DNA from: a phage
Sequence record: PZ386962.1
Reading direction: 5' to 3' (one strand)
Length of the DNA: 42,716 bases
Every line of letters starts with the position of its first letter. Positions within the stretch are counted from its first letter, which is position 1. Shown one piece after another: positions 3,999 to 39,800 of this stretch. The notes under the pieces were generated by a model. The model did no database searches. It saw only the letters and a program-made list of their open reading frames with translations, and was not told the origin of the DNA. The position numbers and the translations under genes are program-made.

Positions 3999-4200
3999 GG
4001 GTATCCGAAAGCTGAGGCAATGAACAGGCCGTGGGTGCAATACCCCGGCTTGAAAATTGACTATTTGTACGTGCCCCTCCCTCGACCCAAATGACCGCGC
4101 GTACCCCCATGACGTGTGCGCGGATTAGCCTCGCGACGTGCGCGATAATTGCTCGCGTGCGCTGCGCGGCGCGTCGAAAGGATTGCCTGCGTTCGGTATA

Positions 4201-4608
4201 GCTCGTGCGTGTCGCGTTTCATCGTCTGCCGTGTGGCGTGCTGTGCGCTGTCCTGCTGGCTGTGCTGTGTGCCTGCTGTGTGGGCTATCGGTGGCGGTGT
4301 GGTGCTGTCCTGTGGGGACGCTCTGCGCTGGCTGTGCGGTGCTGTGCGCTGCGCGTGGTCGTGCGGGTATCTGTCTCTTTTCGTCGTGGTGTGTGGTGCT
4401 GGTGTGTAGCGGTGTGCGGCGTGGTGCTGCCGTCCTGCTGTGTGGTGTGCTGGTCTACTGTCTGCGCCTGCCAGCTCTGCGCGTCGTACTCTGCTACCTG
4501 CTGTTACTGTCCTACTGCCTTCACTGTCTGCCGTCTGTCAGTCCTACGGTCTGCCATCCGTCATCCGTTCGGCGCTCGCTTGTTTCGGCTGCGCCGCGCT
4601 CGCTCTGC
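4201..4608. repeat. A-depleted GT/GC-rich compositional island with degenerate short repeats
   Basis: About 400 bp in which the + strand has only ~16 A by hand count; built from degenerate GCTGTG / CTGTGCGCTG / ACTGTCTGCC units; long ORFs in all three + frames are a composition artefact. Confidence 0.7.
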
Positions 4609-4617
4609 GTATCTAGC

Positions 4618-4635
4618 GATACTATATCACTATAG
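4618..4635 (+). promoter_or_regulatory. T7-like phage promoter core candidate (TCACTATAG) near presumed genome left end
   Basis: GATACTATATCACTATAG: last 9 nt identical to T7 class promoter -8 to +1 (TCACTATAG); reverse complement carries the ATGAAAGTGTCTATAG element also found at 25618. Confidence 0.3.
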
Positions 4636-4651
4636 ACACTTTCATAATTAT

Positions 4652-4672
4652 CTAATGATTACAGTAACTTAT
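4652..4672. repeat. 21-bp direct repeat copy 1 (CTAATGATTACAGTAACTTAT)
   Basis: Exact 21-mer repeated at 4731-4751 within an AT-rich stretch. Confidence 0.85.
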
Positions 4673-4730
4673 AACCTATCTGATAACGGTATTCTATCCA
4701 GTGTTAGGATTATCTAATCAAACTTTAATC

Positions 4731-4751
4731 CTAATGATTACAGTAACTTAT
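4731..4751. repeat. 21-bp direct repeat copy 2 (CTAATGATTACAGTAACTTAT)
   Basis: Exact copy of 4652-4672. Confidence 0.85.
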
Positions 4752-4878: not shown

Positions 4879-4907
4879 TTGACAAGGCAAGCTCACTATG
4901 CTGTAAT
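4879..4907 (+). promoter_or_regulatory. sigma70-type early promoter candidate 2
   Basis: TTGACA - 17 bp - TGcTGTAAT (extended -10 TGn). Confidence 0.6.
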
Positions 4908-5015
4908 GCTTCCACGTCAGCCAGCAAGCTAAACAGTCATTGATAAAGACGTTAAAACACACGTAGGCGAACTGGTACGGTTTAATTAACTCTGAAAGGG
5001 CGCTGATTAAAACGG

Positions 5016-5044
5016 TTGACAGGATGAAATGAGTATGCTGTAAT
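5016..5044 (+). promoter_or_regulatory. sigma70-type early promoter candidate 3
   Basis: TTGACA - 17 bp - TGcTGTAAT. Confidence 0.6.
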
Positions 5045-5095
5045 GCACACCAGATTGACAGGGCAGCAAGCCAGTCAGTCAGAAGTAAAAAGTAG

Positions 5096-5124
5096 TTGAC
5101 ACGCTGAATACGATGTGATGTAAT
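5096..5124 (+). promoter_or_regulatory. sigma70-type early promoter candidate 4
   Basis: TTGACA - 17 bp - TGaTGTAAT. Confidence 0.6.
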
Positions 5125-5556
5125 CAGCACCGAGTTGAAAGGTTGCAAAACAACCTGCTCTGAGTGAACGTAAACAGGCCACGTAGTGTCTCGGCCTCAT
5201 GGGTATCCGGCGCAGCTAGGAACTGGTGAGGGCACCGCCGAAAGGCAATAGGGGTAGCGCCCGGTGCGATGGGAACGGAGAAGCGCGATAGACGCAGCGC
5301 AGTATCAGCACAATCCCAAACGTCTTATAAGGCGCGGAGTGAAGCGGGTAGGTAGGCAAGCTGGTAACGGTGAGCCGGACTGCTGGAGGACTCCTGAGAG
5401 TGGATGCAGACAATATCCACGGCGCGAAATGGGCGGGGCGATTTTTCAGGGTAGTGAATCCGACAAGCCAATCAATGCCAACGAGTGCAGACTGTACGGC
5501 GCGTCACAATGGGTTCACTATCCACCTGAAAATAGCCAACAACTGGAGAAATTAAT

Positions 5557-10772: not shown

Positions 10773-10797
10773 ATGCCTGTTATTATTTAGCAGGCAT
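10773..10797 (+). other. stem-loop (7-bp stem ATGCCTG/CAGGCAT, AT-rich loop) at early/middle boundary
   Basis: Perfect 7-bp inverted repeat with 11-nt loop; no U-tract; followed immediately by the ATGAAGGTGTCTATA motif. Confidence 0.35.
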
Positions 10798-10835
10798 TAT
10801 GAAGGTGTCTATATTGGCCAACGTGAGGATGAAAT

Positions 10836-19009: not shown

Positions 19010-19971
19010 ACAGGCTACTCGCCAGAGCGGAGGTGGAACCTGACCAGTTTGATGGTTACGTGTCTGGTCGTATTCTGCTGTGTGATGCTGACTCGACAGT
19101 CTACGTTGCGGCAGCAACCACGAAGAACATCGAGACAGCGAAGACGCGGTTCTGTTCCGGGGTGCTGACTGCTAAGTTCCTCGCCAATGCTCAGTCAGTC
19201 CGTATCGAGTTGACCGCTGCGGAGTGTACGAAAGCTGGACGGTACAAGCTGCGTGGGGCCAAGCTGTATCAGGGCAACCGAGACAAAGACCGCAAGCCCG
19301 GTCTGGTCGAGCCGTTGCGTAAGGCGATTGGCCGGAATATGTTCAACGTTCCTGATGGCGAGGATTGGTACGTCCACCTGAACTTCGAGTTCGAGGCAGA
19401 CGACACCTTAATCATGGATGCGTGGACGATTGGCATTAACGATGCAGTAATCTACAGCGCGGATAAAGACCTGCGCTGCTGGCCGGGCAGGTTCCTTGAC
19501 CCGTACGACAACAAGGTACTGGAGCCATGCAAAGGTGTGGGCCGTCTGTGGTGGCATGAGACCAAGAGTGACAAGTCACTGATTGGTCATGGGCCTATCT
19601 TCTTTTGGGCACAGATGCTGATGGGCGACAGCGCCGACAACATCGCAGGTGTCAAGAAGATTGGTAAACAGACAGCTTACGATATGCTGGTCGATTATCA
19701 GGAGACTGATGACGAGTCGGCTGTGGCTGAGTTCGTGCTCCGTGAGTACATGGTGCGCGACCAGAACCCATGGCCAGAAGCAGTGGCGTTGTGGCTGTAC
19801 CGCACGCCGACCTACTCATTCGCAGCCCACCTCAATACGCTGACCTTGAGCAAGGAGCTGCGTGTCTGGCTGCATAAGAAACTGAATGAGGAATGGTATG
19901 CGGAAAGTGACTGGCGCGACCTTGTTGCAGATGCGGAAGAATGCGATGGGCTGTCCTTGCCCACTCTGTAA
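18997..19971 (+). CDS. 5'-3' exonuclease (T7 gp6-like, FEN-type)
   Basis: Acidic motifs in the order expected for T7 gp6-like exonucleases (LLCDADSTVYVAA, ADDTLIMDAW, YSADKDLRCWPG); GAGGGGAGAG RBS. Confidence 0.65.
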   Translation: MGKLDRLLARAEVEPDQFDGYVSGRILLCDADSTVYVAAATTKNIETAKTRFCSGVLTAKFLANAQSVRIELTAAECTKAGRYKLRGAKLYQGNRDKDRKPGLVEPLRKAIGRNMFNVPDGEDWYVHLNFEFEADDTLIMDAWTIGINDAVIYSADKDLRCWPGRFLDPYDNKVLEPCKGVGRLWWHETKSDKSLIGHGPIFFWAQMLMGDSADNIAGVKKIGKQTAYDMLVDYQETDDESAVAEFVLREYMVRDQNPWPEAVALWLYRTPTYSFAAHLNTLTLSKELRVWLHKKLNEEWYAESDWRDLVADAEECDGLSLPTL

Positions 19972-20278: not shown

Positions 20279-21402
20279 TGACCAAGTTAACTAATCACCA
20301 ACTCAAAGAAGACATTGCCGAAGGGCTTGGCACCAAGGCCATTGCTGAAAAGCACGACATGACCGAGAGCGCCATTCGATACCGGAAGCGCCAGCTTGCC
20401 AAGAGCGGCTGGAGTCCTGAGCACGACATGACGAAGGAGGTGCCGGAGCCGTACGCGGTGAAGGGTACGTCCACGCTGTACGATAAGGACGGCAACGTTG
20501 TCATGCAGTGGGTGAAGACAGCACTCGACCGTGAGCAGGAGCTGGCGCTGCTGCAAGAAGCTGTCGATGCGATTAGCGAGAGCATCACCCCGGAAGCTGC
20601 CCGACCGTACGCCGGGGGCGCGGCACCTGCCGAGCTGCTGAACCTGTTCGTGCTGACTGACTACCACCTCGGTATGCTGGCATGGGCAGAGGAAACTGGT
20701 GACGACTGGGATATGAAGATTGCGGAAGACCTGCTGGTCAAGTGGTTCTCGGCAGCGATTGCCAGTGCGCCGCCAGCACAGGTTGCCATCTTCGGCCAGC
20801 TCGGTGACTTCCTACACTGGGATGGGCTGGATGCAGTGACACCTTCGAGTGGGCATGTGCTGGATGCAGACACGCGATTCCAGAAGCTGGTGCGTGTGGC
20901 TATCCGGGCGCAGCGCCGCATCATTGGTATGCTGCTGGAGAAGTTCCCGCAGGTTCACGTAGTGTGTGCCGAGGGCAACCACGACATGGCCAGCTCCATC
21001 TGGATGCGTGAGCTGCTGCATGTCCTGTACGCTGACGAGCCGCGTGTCACCGTTGACCGCAGCCCCGACCCGTACTACTGCTATGAGCATGGCGAGACGG
21101 CACTGTTCTTCCACCATGGTCACAAGCGTAAGGCAGAACAACTGGAGACTATACTGGTCGCCAAGTTCCGCGAAGTGTATGGCCGAACCAAACATGCGTA
21201 TGCGCACGTTGGCCACCTGCATCACAAGAAGGTACTGGAGTCTGGTGTCATGGTCGTTGAGCAGCACCGTACGCTGGCAGCGAAGGATGCCTATGCCTCT
21301 CGTGGTGGTTGGCTGAGTGAGCGCAGCGCGAGCGTGATTACTTATCATGCCCGGTACGGTGAGGTCGCACGATTCACGATTAGCCCGGAGATGTTAGAGT
21401 GA
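20275..21402 (+). CDS. calcineurin-like metallophosphoesterase with N-terminal HTH
   Basis: Phosphoesterase motifs GDFLHWDG, EGNHDM, HHGH, GHLHH; N-terminal helix-turn-helix-like segment; AAGGGGA RBS. Confidence 0.6.
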   Translation: MMTKLTNHQLKEDIAEGLGTKAIAEKHDMTESAIRYRKRQLAKSGWSPEHDMTKEVPEPYAVKGTSTLYDKDGNVVMQWVKTALDREQELALLQEAVDAISESITPEAARPYAGGAAPAELLNLFVLTDYHLGMLAWAEETGDDWDMKIAEDLLVKWFSAAIASAPPAQVAIFGQLGDFLHWDGLDAVTPSSGHVLDADTRFQKLVRVAIRAQRRIIGMLLEKFPQVHVVCAEGNHDMASSIWMRELLHVLYADEPRVTVDRSPDPYYCYEHGETALFFHHGHKRKAEQLETILVAKFREVYGRTKHAYAHVGHLHHKKVLESGVMVVEQHRTLAAKDAYASRGGWLSERSASVITYHARYGEVARFTISPEMLE

Positions 21403-22663: not shown

Positions 22664-22839
22664 GTGCTTTACTTTATGTGATTGCTTTGTTCTGGTTCGT
22701 GTACTTTACACTGGCCACCCTCAGCGCGTGCAAGTCTTATAACTTGACGCACTACCCGACACGGGCTGGCTCTGCTGGTTTCGTTGTGTGGGTACTGTTG
22801 GCTGTACTGCCAACTTGGTTCATCTGCTATCTGGCGTAG
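22660..22839 (+). CDS. small membrane protein (2 predicted TMDs)
   Basis: 59 aa, hydrophobic segments LLYVIALFWFVYFTLATL and FVVWVLLAVLPTWFICYLA; AAGGA RBS. Confidence 0.5.
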   Translation: MSALLYVIALFWFVYFTLATLSACKSYNLTHYPTRAGSAGFVVWVLLAVLPTWFICYLA

Positions 22840-22847
22840 GGGATTGT

Positions 22848-23153
22848 ATGAGTCGTTATCAGAGAGCTGTCGATGACACAGCGGTAGACAAGAATGTGTG
22901 CGGTGCGTGCCATGGGAGTGGCACCTACCGGGGCATGTTGATTGGTGGGCAGGTAGTCCTGATGGATTGCGAAGCCTGCGGCGGTACGGGTACGAATAAC
23001 AGCACGCTTCAACACGAGGTGCTGGCAGACTTAGGGCAGCGCAACCAAGCGCAGCCCGGTTATGATAAGCCTACCTATGGCGTTGGTATTGTCGAAGAAT
23101 TTCAAGACGATGCGGCTGAGGTTGAGCGGTTAGCTGGACAAATTAAGGAGTAG
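22848..23153 (+). CDS. small zinc-finger protein (CxxCxGxG x2, DnaJ-type-like)
   Basis: CGACHGSGT and CEACGGTGT motifs; GGGG RBS. Confidence 0.5.
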   Translation: MSRYQRAVDDTAVDKNVCGACHGSGTYRGMLIGGQVVLMDCEACGGTGTNNSTLQHEVLADLGQRNQAQPGYDKPTYGVGIVEEFQDDAAEVERLAGQIKE

Positions 23154-23155
23154 TT

Positions 23156-25588
23156 GTGGACTTACTTGCTGAGCAGATTCGACTTGAAGAAGAAGCACGA
23201 GCCAGACACCGCGAGGGCTGGCTGGACAATATCAAAGAAGCCATGGCTAGTGGCCGGGCCGGGTCGGTGCCGTTGCTCCAGCGTATGATGGTAGAGGCGT
23301 ATCCTCTTGTCGAAGCTGCGATGCAAGAAACCCTGAACGAAACGACCCGTGGGTACGGTGCGCAGTACCGGACGTACATGCGTGAGATTGGCACCAAGGC
23401 GTGTGCCTCTCTTGCACTGAGCATGGCGGTGTCCGGTGCTGCGTCGGAGCAGGCGGTGCTGAGTCTGCTTAAGAGTATGGGTAAAGCGCTGATGGCTGAG
23501 GTGGTGTATCTCCGGGCGAAGCAGACCGGGCCACAGCAGGCAGCGTACATGGAGCGCGTGAAGCAGGACGTTAAGAAGTCCCGGTCGAAGTCAGCCAACC
23601 ACGTCTACAACAAAGCGCGTGCGTCGGCGGCGAACGTTGGGGTCGAGATTGATGTGCTGCCGCAGCGTGCTCTGATTACCATTGGCAAGCTGATGATGAA
23701 ATGCGTGGAGCCAACTGGGTTGGTGGCTACGATTCGCGTCGGCGGCAACCAACGTCAGCGCGGTACGGCACACTTCGCACTGCATGAGGATGTGCTGGCT
23801 ACGATGAACGACTGGCTGGACATGCCGCGTGCTGATGGCATGTGCTGCCCACCGTTGATTATCCCACCGAAGCAGATTGCACCGAACGGTCGCAGCGGTA
23901 TGTGGCACTCGGATGGGCAGGCGGCGATGTACCGGGTAATGAGTCGCATGAACCACAAAGGGTATCGTGCATTGAACGTTGACCCGACCCCTGTTATAGA
24001 GCCGTGTATGATGCTCAGCAGCGTTCCGTACCGAATTAACCCAATGGTACTGGAGTTCCTGAGAACGAACCGTACAGGCGTTATGGGGCTGCCTGTGCCG
24101 CCTCGTGAGCCTAAGCTCCCATTCACCATCCCGGCTGGTGTCAGCTTCGCGCAGTACATCAGCAAGTTCCCACCAGAGATGCAGCAGCAGATGGATGCCG
24201 AGGCTCATGAGTACAAGGTTAAGACTCGCTTGTATTACAATGAGTTGCGTAAGTTCACGTCGCAGATGCTGGCGCTGAATGGTGCAGTCAAAGAGGCAGA
24301 GCGCTATGCGCATTATGACCGGGTATACCTCCCGACCTACGCTGATACACGGGGCCGAATTTATTATTCTTCGACCCTTAACCCTCAGTCCATCGACGCA
24401 GTGCGAGCGCTGCTCGAACTTGCTGAACCAGTGGCTCTCGGAAGTGAGGGGTTATTCTGGCTCAAGGTACATGTTGCGAATTGCTTCGGCTACGACGCGA
24501 CAGACTTCGAAGACCGGGCGGCGTGGACGGACAAGACACTCCCCCGACTACGTGAGGCGTGCCGTCTTCCAGAGGCATTTGATTCGTTCTGGTCAGAGGC
24601 CGATAGCCCTATCAGCGCGTGGGCTGCATCTGTTGAACTCATTCGCGCTATCGACTCAGGAAATCCTGCGGCTTATCCCTGCCGAGTGGTTACACAATGG
24701 GACGCTACCTGTTCAGGATTACAGCACCTCAGTGCGATGTTACGAGATGAGGTTGGAGGTGCTGCTGTCAATCTTATCGACAGCGTGGGAAGAAAAGCAG
24801 ACATATATCTCAAGACGGCAGCAGCGGCGATGCAGGCTCTTGAAGAAAGTGAGGCAGCAGCGCCGACGCAAATGGGTACGTGGCTTGTTAGCATCGGCAT
24901 CGTTCGGGCTATGGCCAAGAAGCCAGTGATGACCTACGTGTACGGGGCAACCCGGCATGGTATGGTTGATTACTACTGCCTGTATCTGCGTGAGAACCGG
25001 GTCAAGCTGCCGGACGGCAAGAGCCTGCTGGAGTGTGCGCAGTTCATCGCAGAGTTCATGTGGAACGCTATCCCTCGCGTTGTGCCGAAGGCGGCTGAGC
25101 TGATGGCATGGTTGCAGGCTATCGCAGTTGAGGCGGCAGCCAACGGCGAGTACGTGGAAATCATCGCACCGTCAGGGTTGCGGGTGGTTAACCTGTACCA
25201 AGCCAGTAAGGAGACGATGCTCAACAACATCAACCTCATGGGTATCCACAGCATTAAGCTGCGTGAGTATCTGGACAAGCCGGACAGCCGGAAGTGTGCT
25301 GCTGCGATTGCTCCGAATTTCGTACACGCTATGGATGCCAGCCACATGATGAAGGTGCTGTGGGAGATGTGGAACAACGGGGTGTACATGGTATCCATCC
25401 ATGACTCGTTCGGTGTTGCGGCGGCACATGCTGGTCTGCTGCATAAGGTCATTCGTGAAAAGTTCGTACAGATGTATGAGCAACATGACCCAATTCAACA
25501 GCTTGCGGTAAGATACAATGCTGTTCCACCTGAGCGGGGCAATCTGGACATCCAGCTTGTGAAACAATCAAGCAAGTTTTTCTGCTGA
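23156..25588 (+). CDS. single-subunit DNA-dependent RNA polymerase (T7 RNAP family)
   Basis: Motif A-like DATCSGLQHLSAML, motif B-like KKPVMTYVYGAT, motif C HDSFG; 810 aa; GTG start with AAGGAG RBS; sits directly upstream of the structural genes as in phiKMV-like phages. Confidence 0.9.
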   Translation: MDLLAEQIRLEEEARARHREGWLDNIKEAMASGRAGSVPLLQRMMVEAYPLVEAAMQETLNETTRGYGAQYRTYMREIGTKACASLALSMAVSGAASEQAVLSLLKSMGKALMAEVVYLRAKQTGPQQAAYMERVKQDVKKSRSKSANHVYNKARASAANVGVEIDVLPQRALITIGKLMMKCVEPTGLVATIRVGGNQRQRGTAHFALHEDVLATMNDWLDMPRADGMCCPPLIIPPKQIAPNGRSGMWHSDGQAAMYRVMSRMNHKGYRALNVDPTPVIEPCMMLSSVPYRINPMVLEFLRTNRTGVMGLPVPPREPKLPFTIPAGVSFAQYISKFPPEMQQQMDAEAHEYKVKTRLYYNELRKFTSQMLALNGAVKEAERYAHYDRVYLPTYADTRGRIYYSSTLNPQSIDAVRALLELAEPVALGSEGLFWLKVHVANCFGYDATDFEDRAAWTDKTLPRLREACRLPEAFDSFWSEADSPISAWAASVELIRAIDSGNPAAYPCRVVTQWDATCSGLQHLSAMLRDEVGGAAVNLIDSVGRKADIYLKTAAAAMQALEESEAAAPTQMGTWLVSIGIVRAMAKKPVMTYVYGATRHGMVDYYCLYLRENRVKLPDGKSLLECAQFIAEFMWNAIPRVVPKAAELMAWLQAIAVEAAANGEYVEIIAPSGLRVVNLYQASKETMLNNINLMGIHSIKLREYLDKPDSRKCAAAIAPNFVHAMDASHMMKVLWEMWNNGVYMVSIHDSFGVAAAHAGLLHKVIREKFVQMYEQHDPIQQLAVRYNAVPPERGNLDIQLVKQSSKFFC

Positions 25589-25613
25589 TAAATAGTGATA
25601 TGTATCATTGACT

Positions 25614-25633
25614 TATATGAAAGTGTCTATAGT
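25614..25633 (+). promoter_or_regulatory. candidate phage RNAP promoter upstream of late genes
   Basis: TTATATGAAAGTGTCTATAG: AT-rich upstream part, TATA then G at presumed +1; 22-nt match to reverse complement of 4624-4645; ATGAARGTGTCTA core also at 10799 and 25906. Confidence 0.3.
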
Positions 25634-25699
25634 GATATGTATCACGCTACCGGTAGCCCCGTCAGTGGCGGGGGTTACTGCCACTAAGAGAGGATTGTA

Positions 25700-25891
25700 A
25701 TGGGTAAAGAATCTCCATTAGAAAGAGTATCGTTCACTAAAGCTCAGTTAGCTCTACTGGAAAAACACTTCGGAACTTGGGCGGCAGTAGGTAAGACTGT
25801 AACCCCTGATACCAACCTGCCACTGATTAACAGAGAAGCTGGTAAACAAGATGTTATCGACTTCATCCGTGAACGTGTCATCGGACTGTAG
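25700..25891 (+). CDS. hypothetical protein
   Basis: 63-aa ORF, AGAGAGGA RBS. Confidence 0.55.
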   Translation: MGKESPLERVSFTKAQLALLEKHFGTWAAVGKTVTPDTNLPLINREAGKQDVIDFIRERVIGL

Positions 25892-25905: not shown

Positions 25906-26325
25906 ATGAAAGTGTCTACTATGGGAAATACATCACACACGACAATGCCACTCGACATTCGCCGTGCTGTGGCCGAGGGCATCCAAGCCGAGCGGCCATG
26001 GTCAGACTTATCTCCCGATGTGATTGTTGACAGCATGTACGAGGCCACCGCCTCCGGTTGTGTTGACGTTTACATCACTGACGATGACAACAGCCTCATG
26101 GCCGTTGCACACATCGGCAGGTTATTCGATATTCATGTGGGCGAGATGGTGGTCGTTATGGCCTCATACGTCTGGCCCCCGTACAGAAACCGTGGAGTGA
26201 TGCGTGCCATCCTCCGTGTACTCAAAGACGTGGCCCGTTCAGAGGGTGTGCGTTGGTGCGGTTACTCCCATATGGTGCGGCCTTACGTTCAGGAGTACCG
26301 CTTCATTGATTTGGAGAAACCGTAA
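25906..26325 (+). CDS. hypothetical protein (weak GNAT-like motif)
   Basis: 139-aa ORF, GGGAGAG RBS; RNRGVMRAIL resembles acetyl-CoA binding motif of GNAT enzymes, weak. Confidence 0.5.
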   Translation: MKVSTMGNTSHTTMPLDIRRAVAEGIQAERPWSDLSPDVIVDSMYEATASGCVDVYITDDDNSLMAVAHIGRLFDIHVGEMVVVMASYVWPPYRNRGVMRAILRVLKDVARSEGVRWCGYSHMVRPYVQEYRFIDLEKP

Positions 26326-36899: not shown

Positions 36900-39800
36900 T
36901 TATCACACAAGAATCGCTCGACAAGTTCATGGCTCCCAAGCAGGGGGCCAACGCTCCCTCGCTGGTTATTCCAGCTCCCGTAAAGACTGCTGACCTCAGC
37001 ACTCCACTGCAAGATGCCACTCGTCAGGGTGCCGTCGAGCAGTTCGACAAGATGCAGGAACTGGAAGCAACTCCGATGGCCACGGCGTTGAGTGCTTCTG
37101 TGAAGAACTGGGACACCACCCAGCTCTTTGATGCCGCGTTCAACAAGCCCACCTTCCAAGCTGACCCGGACTTCAAGCCCAACGAGGCATTGCAGAACGT
37201 ACAGTTCCCGGTGGGTGCAGATGACCGGACGTTCCTGTTCAAATCCAAATCCATGGACGAGTTCAACTGGCGTACCCAGCAGCTCCAAGAGATGCGAGAA
37301 CGTACCCAGTTGGCTCACACTGCGCCAGTGATGAACGCAGTGCTGCAATTCGCTGACCCGCTGTACCTTGCTACTGACCTGCTCTCGATGGGAGCAGGCA
37401 CTGCCCTGAAACTTGGTCGCCTTGGAACCGCTGCCGTAGGCGCGGCGTCCACTGCTACGCTGATGAACACCATCGGTAGCGAGGCTCGCCCAGTATCTCA
37501 GAACGAGATTATCTTTGCGGCTGCCCTGCACGGGGCGGCCACCACTGCATTCTATCGCCCCGCCGCTGCGCCAGCCCGTCGCCTTGATGAGCTGTCGCCA
37601 GAGGAATTTGCGGCTGAGATGCAGCGCCGTAACGGTATTGACCCGAACAACCCGCCGCAGTTTGACCCGAACAACGCCATGTCTCCGCTGGCAATGTCCC
37701 TCGGTGTCGGCCCTCGCGGTGCCACTGTAGTTGACGAAGTACCGGAATCCATTCGGGCTGCGGCTCAGCGTGGACTCGACCTCGCACGCCGTGGTGAGCA
37801 GACCAACCCTAAGCGTCCATTCCTTGAGTGGTCACTGTTCAAGTCGTTCAGTCAGCATTCTGAGGAATCCAGTGCGTTGGCCGGGCGACTGCTGGACGAC
37901 CCACTGAACCCGAACATGACCTCTGCTGCTGCAATCCAGCGCGAGACTCAGGCTCGCTTCGGTGTGCTGCTGAACCAGTATGAAGACACCCTGCGCCATG
38001 CCCTGACCACTGATGGCTGGAGTAACATCCGGCGCTTCCGTGACCCGGTTGGCTATCGCCGGGCGCAGCAGGAGTTCGAAGCTGCTGTTCGTCTTGAGCT
38101 GGACAAGCGCATGATTGACAACAACTTCCGTGGCGCTAACCCGAGTGTGGCCGCTGCCGCCGACCGACTGGGCGAATACTCTCGCGCCGTGGGCCGGGAG
38201 CTGGAACGCAAGGGGATGGTTGAGCCGGGCTTCGTGGAGAAGAACCCGTACTACTACCCTCGCCGGATGAACGTGACCAAGGTTGAGCAGGCTGAGCAGT
38301 TGCTCGGCAAGAAGCCATTCATGAAGCAGATGACGACTGCTGTGCAGCGCGGTATCGGTACTGACCGTCCGACTGCCAACGTCATTGCCCATGCTATGGT
38401 GGAGCGTGCCCGCCGCAAAGGTTACGGTATCGACAACTCCGGTACGATTATCAACAAGGAGGGCCGCGATGAGCTGCTCGAAATCATTGAGAACTCGAAA
38501 GGACTCGACGAGGCTGCCAAGGCCCGTGCTTCCGCACTCCTTCGTGAATCTGGCTCGGACGCTGGCCGACCGTCGATGCTTAAGAGCCGTATCAACATCG
38601 ACATGATGCACCAGCTCGGCCCTAACTTGCAGGTGCGTGACCTGTTCGATGACAGCATCACCAGTATGATGGACAGCTACAACCGCCGCATTACTGGGCG
38701 ACTGGCTCTGCATGAGGCTGGACTGGGTACTGACGCCGAACGCGCTGCTGCTCGTGAGGCTCTGGCCAAATCCATCAAGGATGGTACGGCTCGTCGTCAG
38801 GCGCTGGGGCAGTATGACAACATCATGGCTTATTACCAAGGTGCGCCAGTTGGTGAGGAAATGCCGCAGTTCATGCGTCAGCTCTCTGCACTGACTCAGG
38901 CTACTGGTCTGGCTGCATCTGGTCTGTGGCAGTTGGTGGAATACGGCACGATGATGCAACGTTTCGGGGCAGTCAATACGTTTCGCGCCATGATGCGTAC
39001 AATTCCCGAAGCACGCGCACTATTTAAGCAAATGAGGGTGTCTACTAAGGAAGGTCGTCAGTTGGCACTTGATGCCGAGGAAGCTCTGACTGCGGCGGTT
39101 GCGAGTGATATTCGTATGCGCCCAATCATGCAGCACTATGAAGATATGTTCTCTGCGGATAAGTCACCGTGGGTTATGCGTCTTGAGCACGCCCGTGATG
39201 CTACCATGTTCATCAACATGCAGAAATACATCCACTTCCACCAGACCCGTACCAACGCTGCGCTCGTGATGCAGACTCTGCGTAAGGCTGCCGAAGGTGA
39301 CGCCAAGGCTATTGCCGCGATGAAAACCTATGGTGCCAATGAGCAGCTTCTGAACGACATTCGCAAGCAGGTCGGGCAGCATGGCACCAAGCCAGACGCT
39401 TGGGACGAGGGCGTGTTCAACCGCTCCCGTATTGTCATGATGAATGCCATGGATGACGCCATTGTTCGCGCCCGTGTGGGTGAGCTGCCTGCGTTTGCAG
39501 AGTTCAGCACGCTCGGTAAGTTCCTGTTTACGTTCCGTCGATTCGTAGCGGCTACGCACAACAAGACACTGGTGGGTACGTGGAATCGTGAAGGTGCTCG
39601 CGGAATGGCTACGCTCATGGCGTATCAGTATCCGCTGGCGATGATGGCCACCGCAGCCAACAACGTGATTTCTGGCAAGGCTTTCTCCGACCCGGAAACC
39701 ATGGCACCAAATAAGCTGGCTGGGCAGGCACTGAACTATCTTGGTGCTATCGGCTTTGCCTCCGAGTTCACTGGTGTCCTGACCGGGCAGCAGCGTAGCT

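Follow-up and report, generated by a model that had tools for sequence, protein, structure and literature searches.

The 111 bp that separate the RNA polymerase gene of a phage from its late genes are crowded with repeats and palindromes, and the question is whether these elements serve a DNA-binding protein, a promoter or the RNA made from the region. The whole stretch of DNA that was analysed (42,716 nucleotides, record PZ386962.1) is referred to here as the window. Within it, the gap at 25589-25699 reads TAAATAGTGATATGTATCA TTGACTTAT ATGAAAGTGTCT ATAGTGATATGTATCAC GCTACCGGTAGC CCCGTCAGTGGCGGGG GTTACTGCCACTAAGAGAGGATTGTA and is followed by an ATG. A preliminary description had located this region between the polymerase gene and the late genes, in agreement with the polymerase ORF, which ends at 25588 (its TGA stop codon occupies 25586-25588), and with the first late gene (63 aa), which begins at 25700. 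It had also reported two copies of a 14-bp palindrome, GTGATATGTATCA at 25595-25607 and GTGATATGTATCAC at 25632-25645, a perfect 12-bp palindrome, GCTACCGGTAGC, at 25646-25657, and a CCCCG-N7-CGGGG hairpin at 25657-25673, all of which we found at those positions. The inverted variant that it had noticed near 4620-4633 is likewise present, the minus strand from 4630 to 4616 reading GTGATATAGTATCGC and directly following an exact match to the promoter core described below. In full, the direct repeat comprises 16 nt, ATAGTGATATGTATCA, present without a mismatch at 25592-25607 and again, 37 bp further on, at 25629-25644, and it contains the 14-bp palindrome.

Single palindromes of this size are unremarkable. 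Perfect palindromes of the form 6-N(0-4)-6 number 33 in the window versus 58 +/- 7 in shuffled sequences, and are therefore under-represented genome-wide; the gap showed no clustering of palindromes in excess of the shuffles. Exact 16-mers repeated within 100 bp occur at only two places in the 42.7-kb window, and the repeat in the gap is one of them. The significance of the region thus lies in the exact repeat, in a promoter core that is present in multiple copies and in conservation among relatives.

The window is a Bonnellvirus, a J8-65-like podophage of the phiKMV type. Over the stretch around the first late promoter (P3, see below), its closest relatives are the Escherichia phages aldrigsur and altidsur (98% identity), followed by about a dozen further phages, all Bonnellvirus, at 84-93% identity. 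Conservation was assessed in an alignment of 15 relatives, to which LIMEzero and the metagenomic relative L023 were added. The latter was the one useful new relative obtained from a metagenome scan, the rest being distant polymerases of about 33% identity, and a scan of IMG/VR yielded only three genomes, which were near-identical or already known. The gene that precedes the gap is the following.

23156..25588, plus strand: single-subunit (T7-type) RNA polymerase gene, 810 aa; an ORF, annotated as RNA polymerase in relatives.

The product aligned with T7 RNA polymerase structures over residues 6-781 (E=1e-57) and is about 25% identical to the T7 polymerase, so that the window encodes a single-subunit polymerase cognate to promoters of this class. 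Outside the genus, the polymerase of Pantoea phage LIMEzero is the nearest, with 70% identity, and all others are at about 34% or less. A small ORF with a zinc-finger-like product ('Q-like') lies at 22788-23153, just upstream of the polymerase gene.

The sequence between the two repeats had been described as promoter-like, and our analysis bears this out: the 111-bp gap holds P3, the first late promoter for the phage's own T7-type polymerase. The promoter core is ATGAAAG-NNN-CT-N5-G, and a search of the window with ATGAA[A/G]G-NNN-CT identified four perfect matches (three identical, with P2 differing at one base) and one copy with a single mismatch. The five promoters are listed below.

4616..4645, minus strand: P1, leftward paralogue of P3 (core 4645->4634, inferred start 4628), carrying the 6-3-6 dyad GTGATA-TAG-TATCGC (4630->4616).
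10799..10816, plus strand: P2, ahead of the DNA-metabolism genes; core match, and LIMEzero has an annotated promoter at the homologous place.
25617..25634, plus strand: P3, late promoter ATGAAAGTGTCTATAGT (-17 to -1) with inferred start G25634 (+1); multi-copy core and positional homology.
25906..25923, plus strand: P4, 289 bp 3' of P3 and overlapping the start codon of a GNAT gene; core match.
39032..39049, plus strand: P5, a promoter of the same type inside the gene for a 1036-aa internal virion protein.

The motif recurs, far beyond chance, at positions that are conserved in relatives. Five homologous promoter places were identified in the window, megetsur, glasur, Kc261, J8-65 and Lidtsur, and also in LIMEzero, which has its own version of the core; the two gaps in this layout are J8-65, which lacks a P5 match, and glasur, whose P1 is truncated at the end of the record. 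Positional counterparts of P1 are present in megetsur, Kc261, J8-65, Lidtsur and LIMEzero. The triplet at positions 8-10 is TGT, TGA, CTA or TAA, giving GTGTCT in the window and megetsur, GTGACT in glasur, GCTACT in Kc261 and GTAACT in J8-65 and Lidtsur. Within a genome this triplet is identical across the intergenic copies, and the copies embedded in coding sequence of J8-65 and Lidtsur depart slightly from it. The specificity loop of the polymerase (aligned to T7 N748-Q758) changes in parallel with the triplet (NNINLMGIHS, NNINLMGIHG, -HLHLMGVHQ, -GIKLMGVHA and -GLNLMGVHG), that is, promoter specificity positions and loop co-vary. The identification of the promoters is supported by the concerted change of the triplet, by the parallel change of the loop and by a five-promoter layout that agrees with the mapped promoters in LUZ19 and KP34 and with those annotated in LIMEzero.

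In LUZ19, ONT-cappable-seq placed the promoters P007 and P008 directly 3' of the polymerase gene, with one further promoter in the structural region and one antisense early promoter (PMC10914365), and the strong KP34 promoter S1, mapped by 5'-RACE and in vitro transcription, starts 6 nt after the polymerase gene (PMC6834552). The LIMEzero record (NC_015585) lists 'putative phage specific promoters' at the places of P2 and P3, one of them at 20330-20349. The window resembles all three in having a single-subunit polymerase promoter of about 18 nt right after the polymerase gene and few such promoters per genome, and it matches the phiKMV-type layout in having a second copy a few hundred bp further on, one copy in the structural region and one antisense early copy, P1 being the equivalent of the LUZ19 antisense promoter P001. 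It differs from them in that the core is specific to Bonnellvirus and is predicted from sequence, and in that the subclade of the window has about 25 additional nt, including an exact copy of the start-site sequence, between the stop codon and the promoter, which LUZ19, KP34 and LIMEzero do not have. The five-promoter set of Bonnellvirus is not annotated in the records that we examined (J8-65, Lidtsur, glasur, Kc261 and megetsur), which list coding genes and, for J8-65, terminal repeats.

Two other promoter types were considered and rejected. A conserved TTGACT at 25608-25613 resembles a sigma-70 -35 box, but no acceptable -10 element lies 16-18 bp from it; the best candidate available, TATAGT, is only 14 bp away, and a promoter scan was negative. 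The 'hairpin promoter' motif proposed for KP34-like phages (PMC4411677) is not a usable precedent for a hairpin at the start site, as it did not support transcription by the KP34 polymerase, the true promoter being a different sequence.

To judge from promoter sequences, G25634 is the most likely start of transcription from P3, and G25632 is the alternative. With the A of ATGAAAG taken as position 1, 26 of the 28 promoter instances have a G at position 18, and positions 16 and 17 are variable. The LIMEzero promoters share this 18-nt geometry, with ATGAAGGCAAGCACTAA followed by G (ATGAAGG..CACTAA, then G), and in LIMEzero P3 the G at position 18 is the only G within reach. The glasur core has AAGTGAC at -13 to -7, which matches, in the same register, the AGGTGAC of the SP6 promoter. 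The assignment of +1 to G25634 thus follows from the G at position 18, in a register common to LIMEzero and SP6. The SP6 promoter reads ATTTAGGTGACACTATAG and the T7 promoter TAATACGACTCACTATAG; the Bonnellvirus promoters are like them in the geometry from -17 to +1, the G start, the AT-rich sequence from -4 to -1 and the specificity positions at about -8 to -10 that are read by the loop, and unlike them in the initially transcribed sequence, which is GATAT... rather than GGGAGA or GAAGAG. Bonnellvirus, for which annotation is otherwise limited to coding genes, thereby gains a full set of five promoters for its own polymerase, together with a likely start base and a clear case of co-variation between promoter and specificity loop, which is of use both for annotation and for the construction of orthogonal expression systems.

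With +1 at G25634, the two copies of the repeat take the following places.

25592..25607, plus strand: upstream copy of the 16-mer ATAGTGATATGTATCA, -42 to -27, with the imperfect palindrome GTGATA-TG-TATCAt inside it.
25629..25645, plus strand: downstream 16-mer (25629-25644) and perfect 6-2-6 palindrome GTGATATGTATCAC (25632-25645), forming the start-site and initially transcribed region.

The downstream palindrome therefore spans -2 to +12, which upholds the earlier suggestion that the second palindrome overlaps the transcription start, and the upstream palindrome covers -39 to -26. Because the downstream dyad extends 5' of the inferred start, RNA initiated at the promoter cannot form the dyad hairpin, and such a hairpin does not explain why a dyad was retained across lineages. 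A 5'-terminal hairpin of the late mRNA, which we had entertained, would fit a start at G25632; the register of the 28 promoters and LIMEzero gives G25634, and this removes the hairpin.

P3 is followed by a 66-nt leader of the late mRNA, the features of which are these.

25646..25657, plus strand: 12-bp palindrome GCTACCGGTAGC, +13 to +24 of the late transcript; invariant in 12 of 12 relatives from the window, glasur and Kc261 clades.
25657..25685, plus strand: two mutually exclusive GC-rich leader hairpins (predicted folds).
25687..25702, plus strand: translation start of the first late gene, with its Shine-Dalgarno sequence (AGAGAGGA) and ATG; the gene (63 aa, 25700-25891) is annotated in relatives.

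The first of the GC-rich hairpins, CCCCGUC-AGU-GGCGGGG, has a 7-bp stem (25657-25673) and a predicted energy of -10.9 kcal/mol, and the second, AGUGGCGG-N6-CUGCCACU (25664-25685), has one of -13.2 kcal/mol. The stems are invariant across 12 phages of three clades, only loop positions being variable, and in J8-65, Lidtsur and LIMEzero the region of GCTACCGGTAGC and the GC-rich hairpins is replaced by unrelated sequence. No covariation was found in the leader among the 12 relatives aligned; the stems never vary, so that covariation neither supports nor contradicts the folds. As an isolated RNA hairpin the 12-bp palindrome, GCUACCGGUAGC, is weak (-1.3 kcal/mol), and in the minimum-energy fold the GCTACCGGTAGC segment pairs with the ribosome-binding and start-codon region. 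The predicted ensemble of the leader likewise has the GG of the Shine-Dalgarno sequence and the AUG mostly paired with the segment from +15 to +28. Hairpins formed by the two 14-nt palindromes are also weak (-2.5 and -1.2 kcal/mol), and the first 12-14 nt of RNA started at 25634 are predicted to be unpaired. A search of Rfam gave no family at gathering score, the one chance match being a human lncRNA model (20.5 bits vs 60).

These predictions bear on the earlier proposal of a structured 5' UTR, of which one part stands and one does not: hairpins are present in the leader and a role for its GC-rich part is plausible, with stems that show no covariation, but the 14-bp palindrome does not provide a stable 5'-terminal hairpin. 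The leader would fold into one of the two strong alternative hairpins and partly cover the ribosome-binding site of the first late gene, and the GC-rich sequence, to judge from the predicted folds, probably determines how stable that message is and how well it is translated. In T7, the leader of the phi10 (gene 10) transcript has a 5'-terminal stem-loop that stabilises the mRNA. The order of a late promoter, a structured and highly conserved leader and a Shine-Dalgarno sequence is shared with phi10; unlike phi10, the strong hairpins of P3 begin at about +24, and with +1 at 25634 the late mRNA is predicted to lack a 5'-terminal stabilising stem-loop of the phi10 or ompA type.

Strong GC-rich hairpins at +24 to +52 could also be read as terminators, which would end or attenuate read-through from the polymerase gene or stop P3 transcripts early in the leader and produce a short RNA. 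Premature termination in 5' UTRs yielding short RNAs has been reported for several phages, with two candidates in LUZ19; in addition, a hairpin abuts P2, and LIMEzero has an annotated terminator at the homologous place. No hairpin of the gap is followed by a T run, however, the hairpins of the 14-bp palindromes are very weak, and a scan of 25589-25699 for intrinsic terminators (a GC-rich stem with a T run) found none. We consider termination within the gap extremely unlikely.

In the window, glasur and Kc261 clades the downstream palindrome retains its arms GTGATA and TATCAC, and the centre varies, being TG, GA or, in glasur, GA with a 1-nt deletion. At the same position the J8-65 clade has a different dyad, TCTGG-TATAC-CCAGA, and L023 has ACTGG-TATAC-CCAGT, in which the outer pair differs from that of J8-65 in a compensating manner. 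The start-site dyad of Lidtsur is GGTATACC and that of LIMEzero is GATAT-AG-ATATC. The window-type, J8-65, L023, Lidtsur and LIMEzero dyads are all centred at about +5 to +6.5. Start-site sequences of this kind are AT-rich, alternating (GATAT, TATA) and partly self-complementary, so that the apparent conservation of symmetry is inflated. P1 and P3 are alike from about -35 to +20, which identifies them as paralogous cassettes. We infer that P3 has its start site and initially transcribed sequence in the downstream palindrome, which it shares with its paralogue P1.

The preliminary description had offered a different interpretation, namely that the paired palindromes are a site for a dimeric DNA-binding protein. 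Stated more fully, the palindromes at -39 to -26 and -2 to +12 and the related one at P1 would bind a dimeric protein of the phage or the host, and its binding would block initiation by the phage polymerase or set its timing. The related dyads number three and lie at two promoters, the P3 pair flanks the promoter, with the downstream member lying over the start, and the half-sites GTGATA and TATCAC are conserved around a variable centre, all of which would be expected of operators. A dimer site would also be compatible with the symmetric double change that separates J8-65 from L023, the core GTGA-N6-TCAC resembles the half-site arrangement of CRP, and the 'Q-like' zinc-finger-like protein encoded 5' of the polymerase gene might, by its sequence, be a weak candidate for the binder. 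The half-sites do not have a fixed spacing, however. They are separated by 2 bp at P3 and in the upstream copy, by 3 bp at P1, by 2 bp at P1 of Kc261 and by 1 bp at P3 of glasur (or in a 5-3-5 arrangement), and a rigid dimer would not tolerate arms 1, 2 or 3 bp apart; this pattern fits variation in the length of a hairpin loop better. Most of the genus, and LIMEzero, have no upstream site; in J8-65, Lidtsur and LIMEzero, P1 and P3 have no dyad in common; and in J8-65 and Lidtsur the sequence of the palindrome is wholly different and its position kept. Moreover, the centres of the two P3 palindromes are 37 bp, or about 3.5 helical turns, apart and hence on opposite faces of the helix, the right arm of the P1 dyad creates a T:G position that only RNA, with a U.G pair, would accommodate, and we know of no regulator of this kind for T7-type late promoters. 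On this evidence a dimeric operator is very unlikely, and the proposal of a protein site is not supported. A CRP-like site (GTGA-N6-TCAC) was also considered as a candidate in its own right and rejected, its spacing being broken in glasur and the site being absent from J8-65, Lidtsur and LIMEzero.

The upstream copy has a much narrower distribution. It is confined to the subclade of the window, about a dozen records, and is invariant in the nine members aligned (9/9). In glasur, Kc261, usur, J8-65 and Lidtsur the upstream element is diverged and non-palindromic, and in LIMEzero, which has neither the upstream copy nor the spacer, the promoter begins 2 nt after the stop codon. Within the nine-phage subclade there are one, four and two variable columns in the bins 25577-25613, 25614-25650 and 25651-25687, respectively, and about 7.5 variable columns per 37 bp in the flanking coding bins. 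When all 12 aligned phages are taken, that is, with glasur, Kc261 and usur, the bin 25577-25613 is the most variable, with 21 columns. We infer that constraint has preserved the upstream copy, a duplicate specific to this subclade; alternatively, the gap could vary so little because the module spread recently by recombination. The copy would have arisen in one Bonnellvirus subclade by duplication or gene conversion of the start-site block. The state of the centre of the downstream copy is at odds with relatedness, ROV85 and RZ4 (86%) having TG as the window does and megetsur (93%) having GA, and this distribution suggests, from the sequences, gene conversion between the copies or mosaic exchange.

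At the level of RNA, the 5' arm of a predicted long-range stem is added to the features.

25595..25610, plus strand: 5' arm of a long-range stem that is present in read-through RNA only and pairs with 25630-25645 (predicted fold).

The minimum-energy fold of read-through RNA joins the two copies in a stem of 16 bp, including two tandem central G.U pairs (TG/TG), and a 4-bp extension; the stem has -18.2 kcal/mol, versus -3.7 kcal/mol for both local hairpins together. The read-through segment gave z scores of -3.2 to -3.8 in the window, megetsur, LF82-23 and ROV85, of -0.3 to -1.4 in glasur, Kc261 and L023, and of +0.8 in Lidtsur; J8-65, at -2.8, forms another fold that does not include the 16-bp stem. 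Glasur, Kc261, J8-65, Lidtsur and LIMEzero all lack the 16-bp stem. Pairing that is conserved or compensated in relatives, as would be expected of an RNase III site, was not found, the stem being confined to the subclade of the window. The arms of the stem are invariant, so that covariation cannot be scored, and the stem is a necessary consequence of duplicating a palindrome and is thus not independent evidence of function. The predicted duplex of 16 bp plus 4 bp in read-through RNA is shorter than the classic 20-22 bp (approximately) of RNase III.

The most likely interpretation is that the pair of palindromes acts in RNA and not as a protein operator. Read-through transcripts from the polymerase gene would carry both copies and form a duplex around the promoter sequence, and transcripts started at P3 would carry only the 3' arm; because both arms are present only in read-through RNA, the stem would mark that RNA specifically. 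The duplex might then be a T7-like site for double-strand-specific processing, or it might stabilise the 3' end of the polymerase message. As far as the predicted fold goes, the read-through stem may be a processing or stability element. The explanation that we favour for the region as a whole, in which we have slightly more than even confidence, combines the points made so far: the gap is P3 with its leader, the downstream palindrome is the start-site block, the upstream palindrome is a copy of it in one subclade, and the pair acts in RNA. A more ambitious proposal is that promoters of this polymerase lineage include, as a functional and conserved component, a dyad centred about 5-6 bp 3' of the start, retained in the window clade, the J8-65 clade, Lidtsur and LIMEzero although the sequences are unrelated, and that the second copy creates a read-through duplex that directs processing or decay, thereby uncoupling expression of the polymerase gene from that of the late genes; this we regard as distinctly unlikely.

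Alternatively, only the promoter and the leader might be functional, the upstream 16-mer being a neutral by-product of gene conversion and the dyad at the start being incidental to an AT-rich, easily melted region. Several observations are as expected if this were true. The pentanucleotide TGTAT is already common to the upstream elements of the outgroups (Kc261 GGTACTGTATTC, glasur AGCATTGTATTCC) and the start-site block and would have provided the microhomology for conversion; the identity of the copies is a contiguous 16 nt that includes ATA, which the stem does not need; the conflict between the TG/GA state of the downstream copy and relatedness is what repeated conversion or mosaic exchange predicts; most of the genus and LIMEzero do without an upstream copy; and single palindromes of this size are common by chance. 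A neutral copy is harder to reconcile with the absence of any variable column across it in nine phages, against some 7.5 per 37 bp in the neighbouring coding DNA, with the avoidance of palindromes elsewhere in the genome (33 vs 58 +/- 7), and with dyads that occur at the same position in four sequence-unrelated versions, including one with a compensating double change. We take the neutral alternative seriously and nevertheless think it unlikely.

Returning to our preferred explanation, in which the duplicated block acts in RNA, the block is a small lineage-specific twist on a known kind of element, and it constitutes a small natural experiment. If the duplex is processed, the phage could treat read-through copies of the late message differently from those initiated at the promoter; if it is not, the region amounts to an ordinary late promoter followed by a structured leader. 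A likeness is found in T7, in which, according to the map of Dunn and Studier, the RNase III site R1.1 reportedly lies just after gene 1 and is interleaved with the promoters phi1.1A and phi1.1B. By analogy with R1.1, double-stranded RNA would form in the window only in transcripts that leave the polymerase gene, next to or around promoters directly downstream. The T7 R sites are typically bulged, two-part hairpins; the predicted structure here is, unlike them, a near-perfect 16-bp duplex that derives from a palindrome repeat and belongs to one subclade only.

The leaders that follow P3, the first late promoter for the phage's own T7-type RNA polymerase, lie at the following positions in other clades:

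J8-65 (L009/L015), 19630-19690, late leader
L023, a metagenomic relative, 880-950, late leader
LIMEzero (L037), 20333-20385, late leader

These leaders are all rich in hairpins, although their sequences are unrelated from clade to clade. In L023, for example, the hairpins are GTAACT-CTCAGT-AGTTAC and GTAGT-GGAGAA-ACTAC, the latter carrying a Shine-Dalgarno sequence in its loop. Because each clade possesses an unrelated and yet hairpin-rich leader, the sequence comparison suggests that structure in the late leader is a general requirement, and that the sequence itself is free to vary. Perfect inverted repeats of the form 6-N(0-4)-6 occur 33 times in the window as a whole, fewer than the 58 +/- 7 seen in dinucleotide-preserving shuffles, a deficit consistent with avoidance of palindromes as restriction sites. 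This scarcity makes the conserved, perfect 12-bp palindrome at 25646-25657 in the P3 leader somewhat more notable.

Two further copies of the phage promoter are embedded in coding sequence:

25906-25923, plus strand, P4, at the start codon of a GNAT acetyltransferase gene (MKVST)
39032-39049, plus strand, P5, in frame within a 1036-aa internal virion protein (..QMRVSTKEG..)

Both genes are read in the same frame relative to the promoter motif. In the relative Kc261, the specificity triplet, which changes together among the copies of one genome, has shifted from GTGTCT to GCTACT, and Val-Ser is thereby recoded as Ala-Thr in both the acetyltransferase and the internal virion protein. Thus, promoter evolution forces residue changes in two unrelated proteins.

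One copy points leftward:

4645 to 4628 (within 4616-4751), minus strand, P1

P1 is directed toward the genome end, with no genes ahead of it, and corresponds to P001, an antisense promoter that has been mapped in LUZ19 (PMC10914365). It may stop read-around on concatemers or, alternatively, prime replication. On one side of P1 there is a zone rich in G and T (about 4060-4600) that presumably represents the terminal-repeat region, and on the other an AT-rich stretch that holds two exact copies of the 21-mer CTAATGATTACAGTAACTTAT (4652-4672 and 4731-4751, 79 bp apart), the only close exact repeat in the genome besides that at P3. Farther along, at about 4880-5130, three candidate sigma-70-like early promoters were read by eye, with the common appearance of TTGACA, about 17 nt and then gcTGTAATgc; the first early gene, downstream of them, is a SAM-hydrolase-like ORF starting at about 5264.

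Two other elements adjoin P2 and the polymerase gene, respectively:

10774-10796, 9-bp hairpin AUGCCUGUU..AGCAGGCAU, ending two bases short of P2
22788-23153, small ORF directly 5' of the polymerase gene

No T run is present 3' of the hairpin stem, whereas in LIMEzero a factor-independent terminator is annotated at the homologous spot, just before its own P2. The ORF matches the PHROG 'anti-termination protein Q-like' (E=1e-13) and, weakly and below threshold, a zinc-finger (DnaJ CXXCXGXG) domain; its product is possibly a nucleic-acid-binding regulator encoded beside the polymerase gene.
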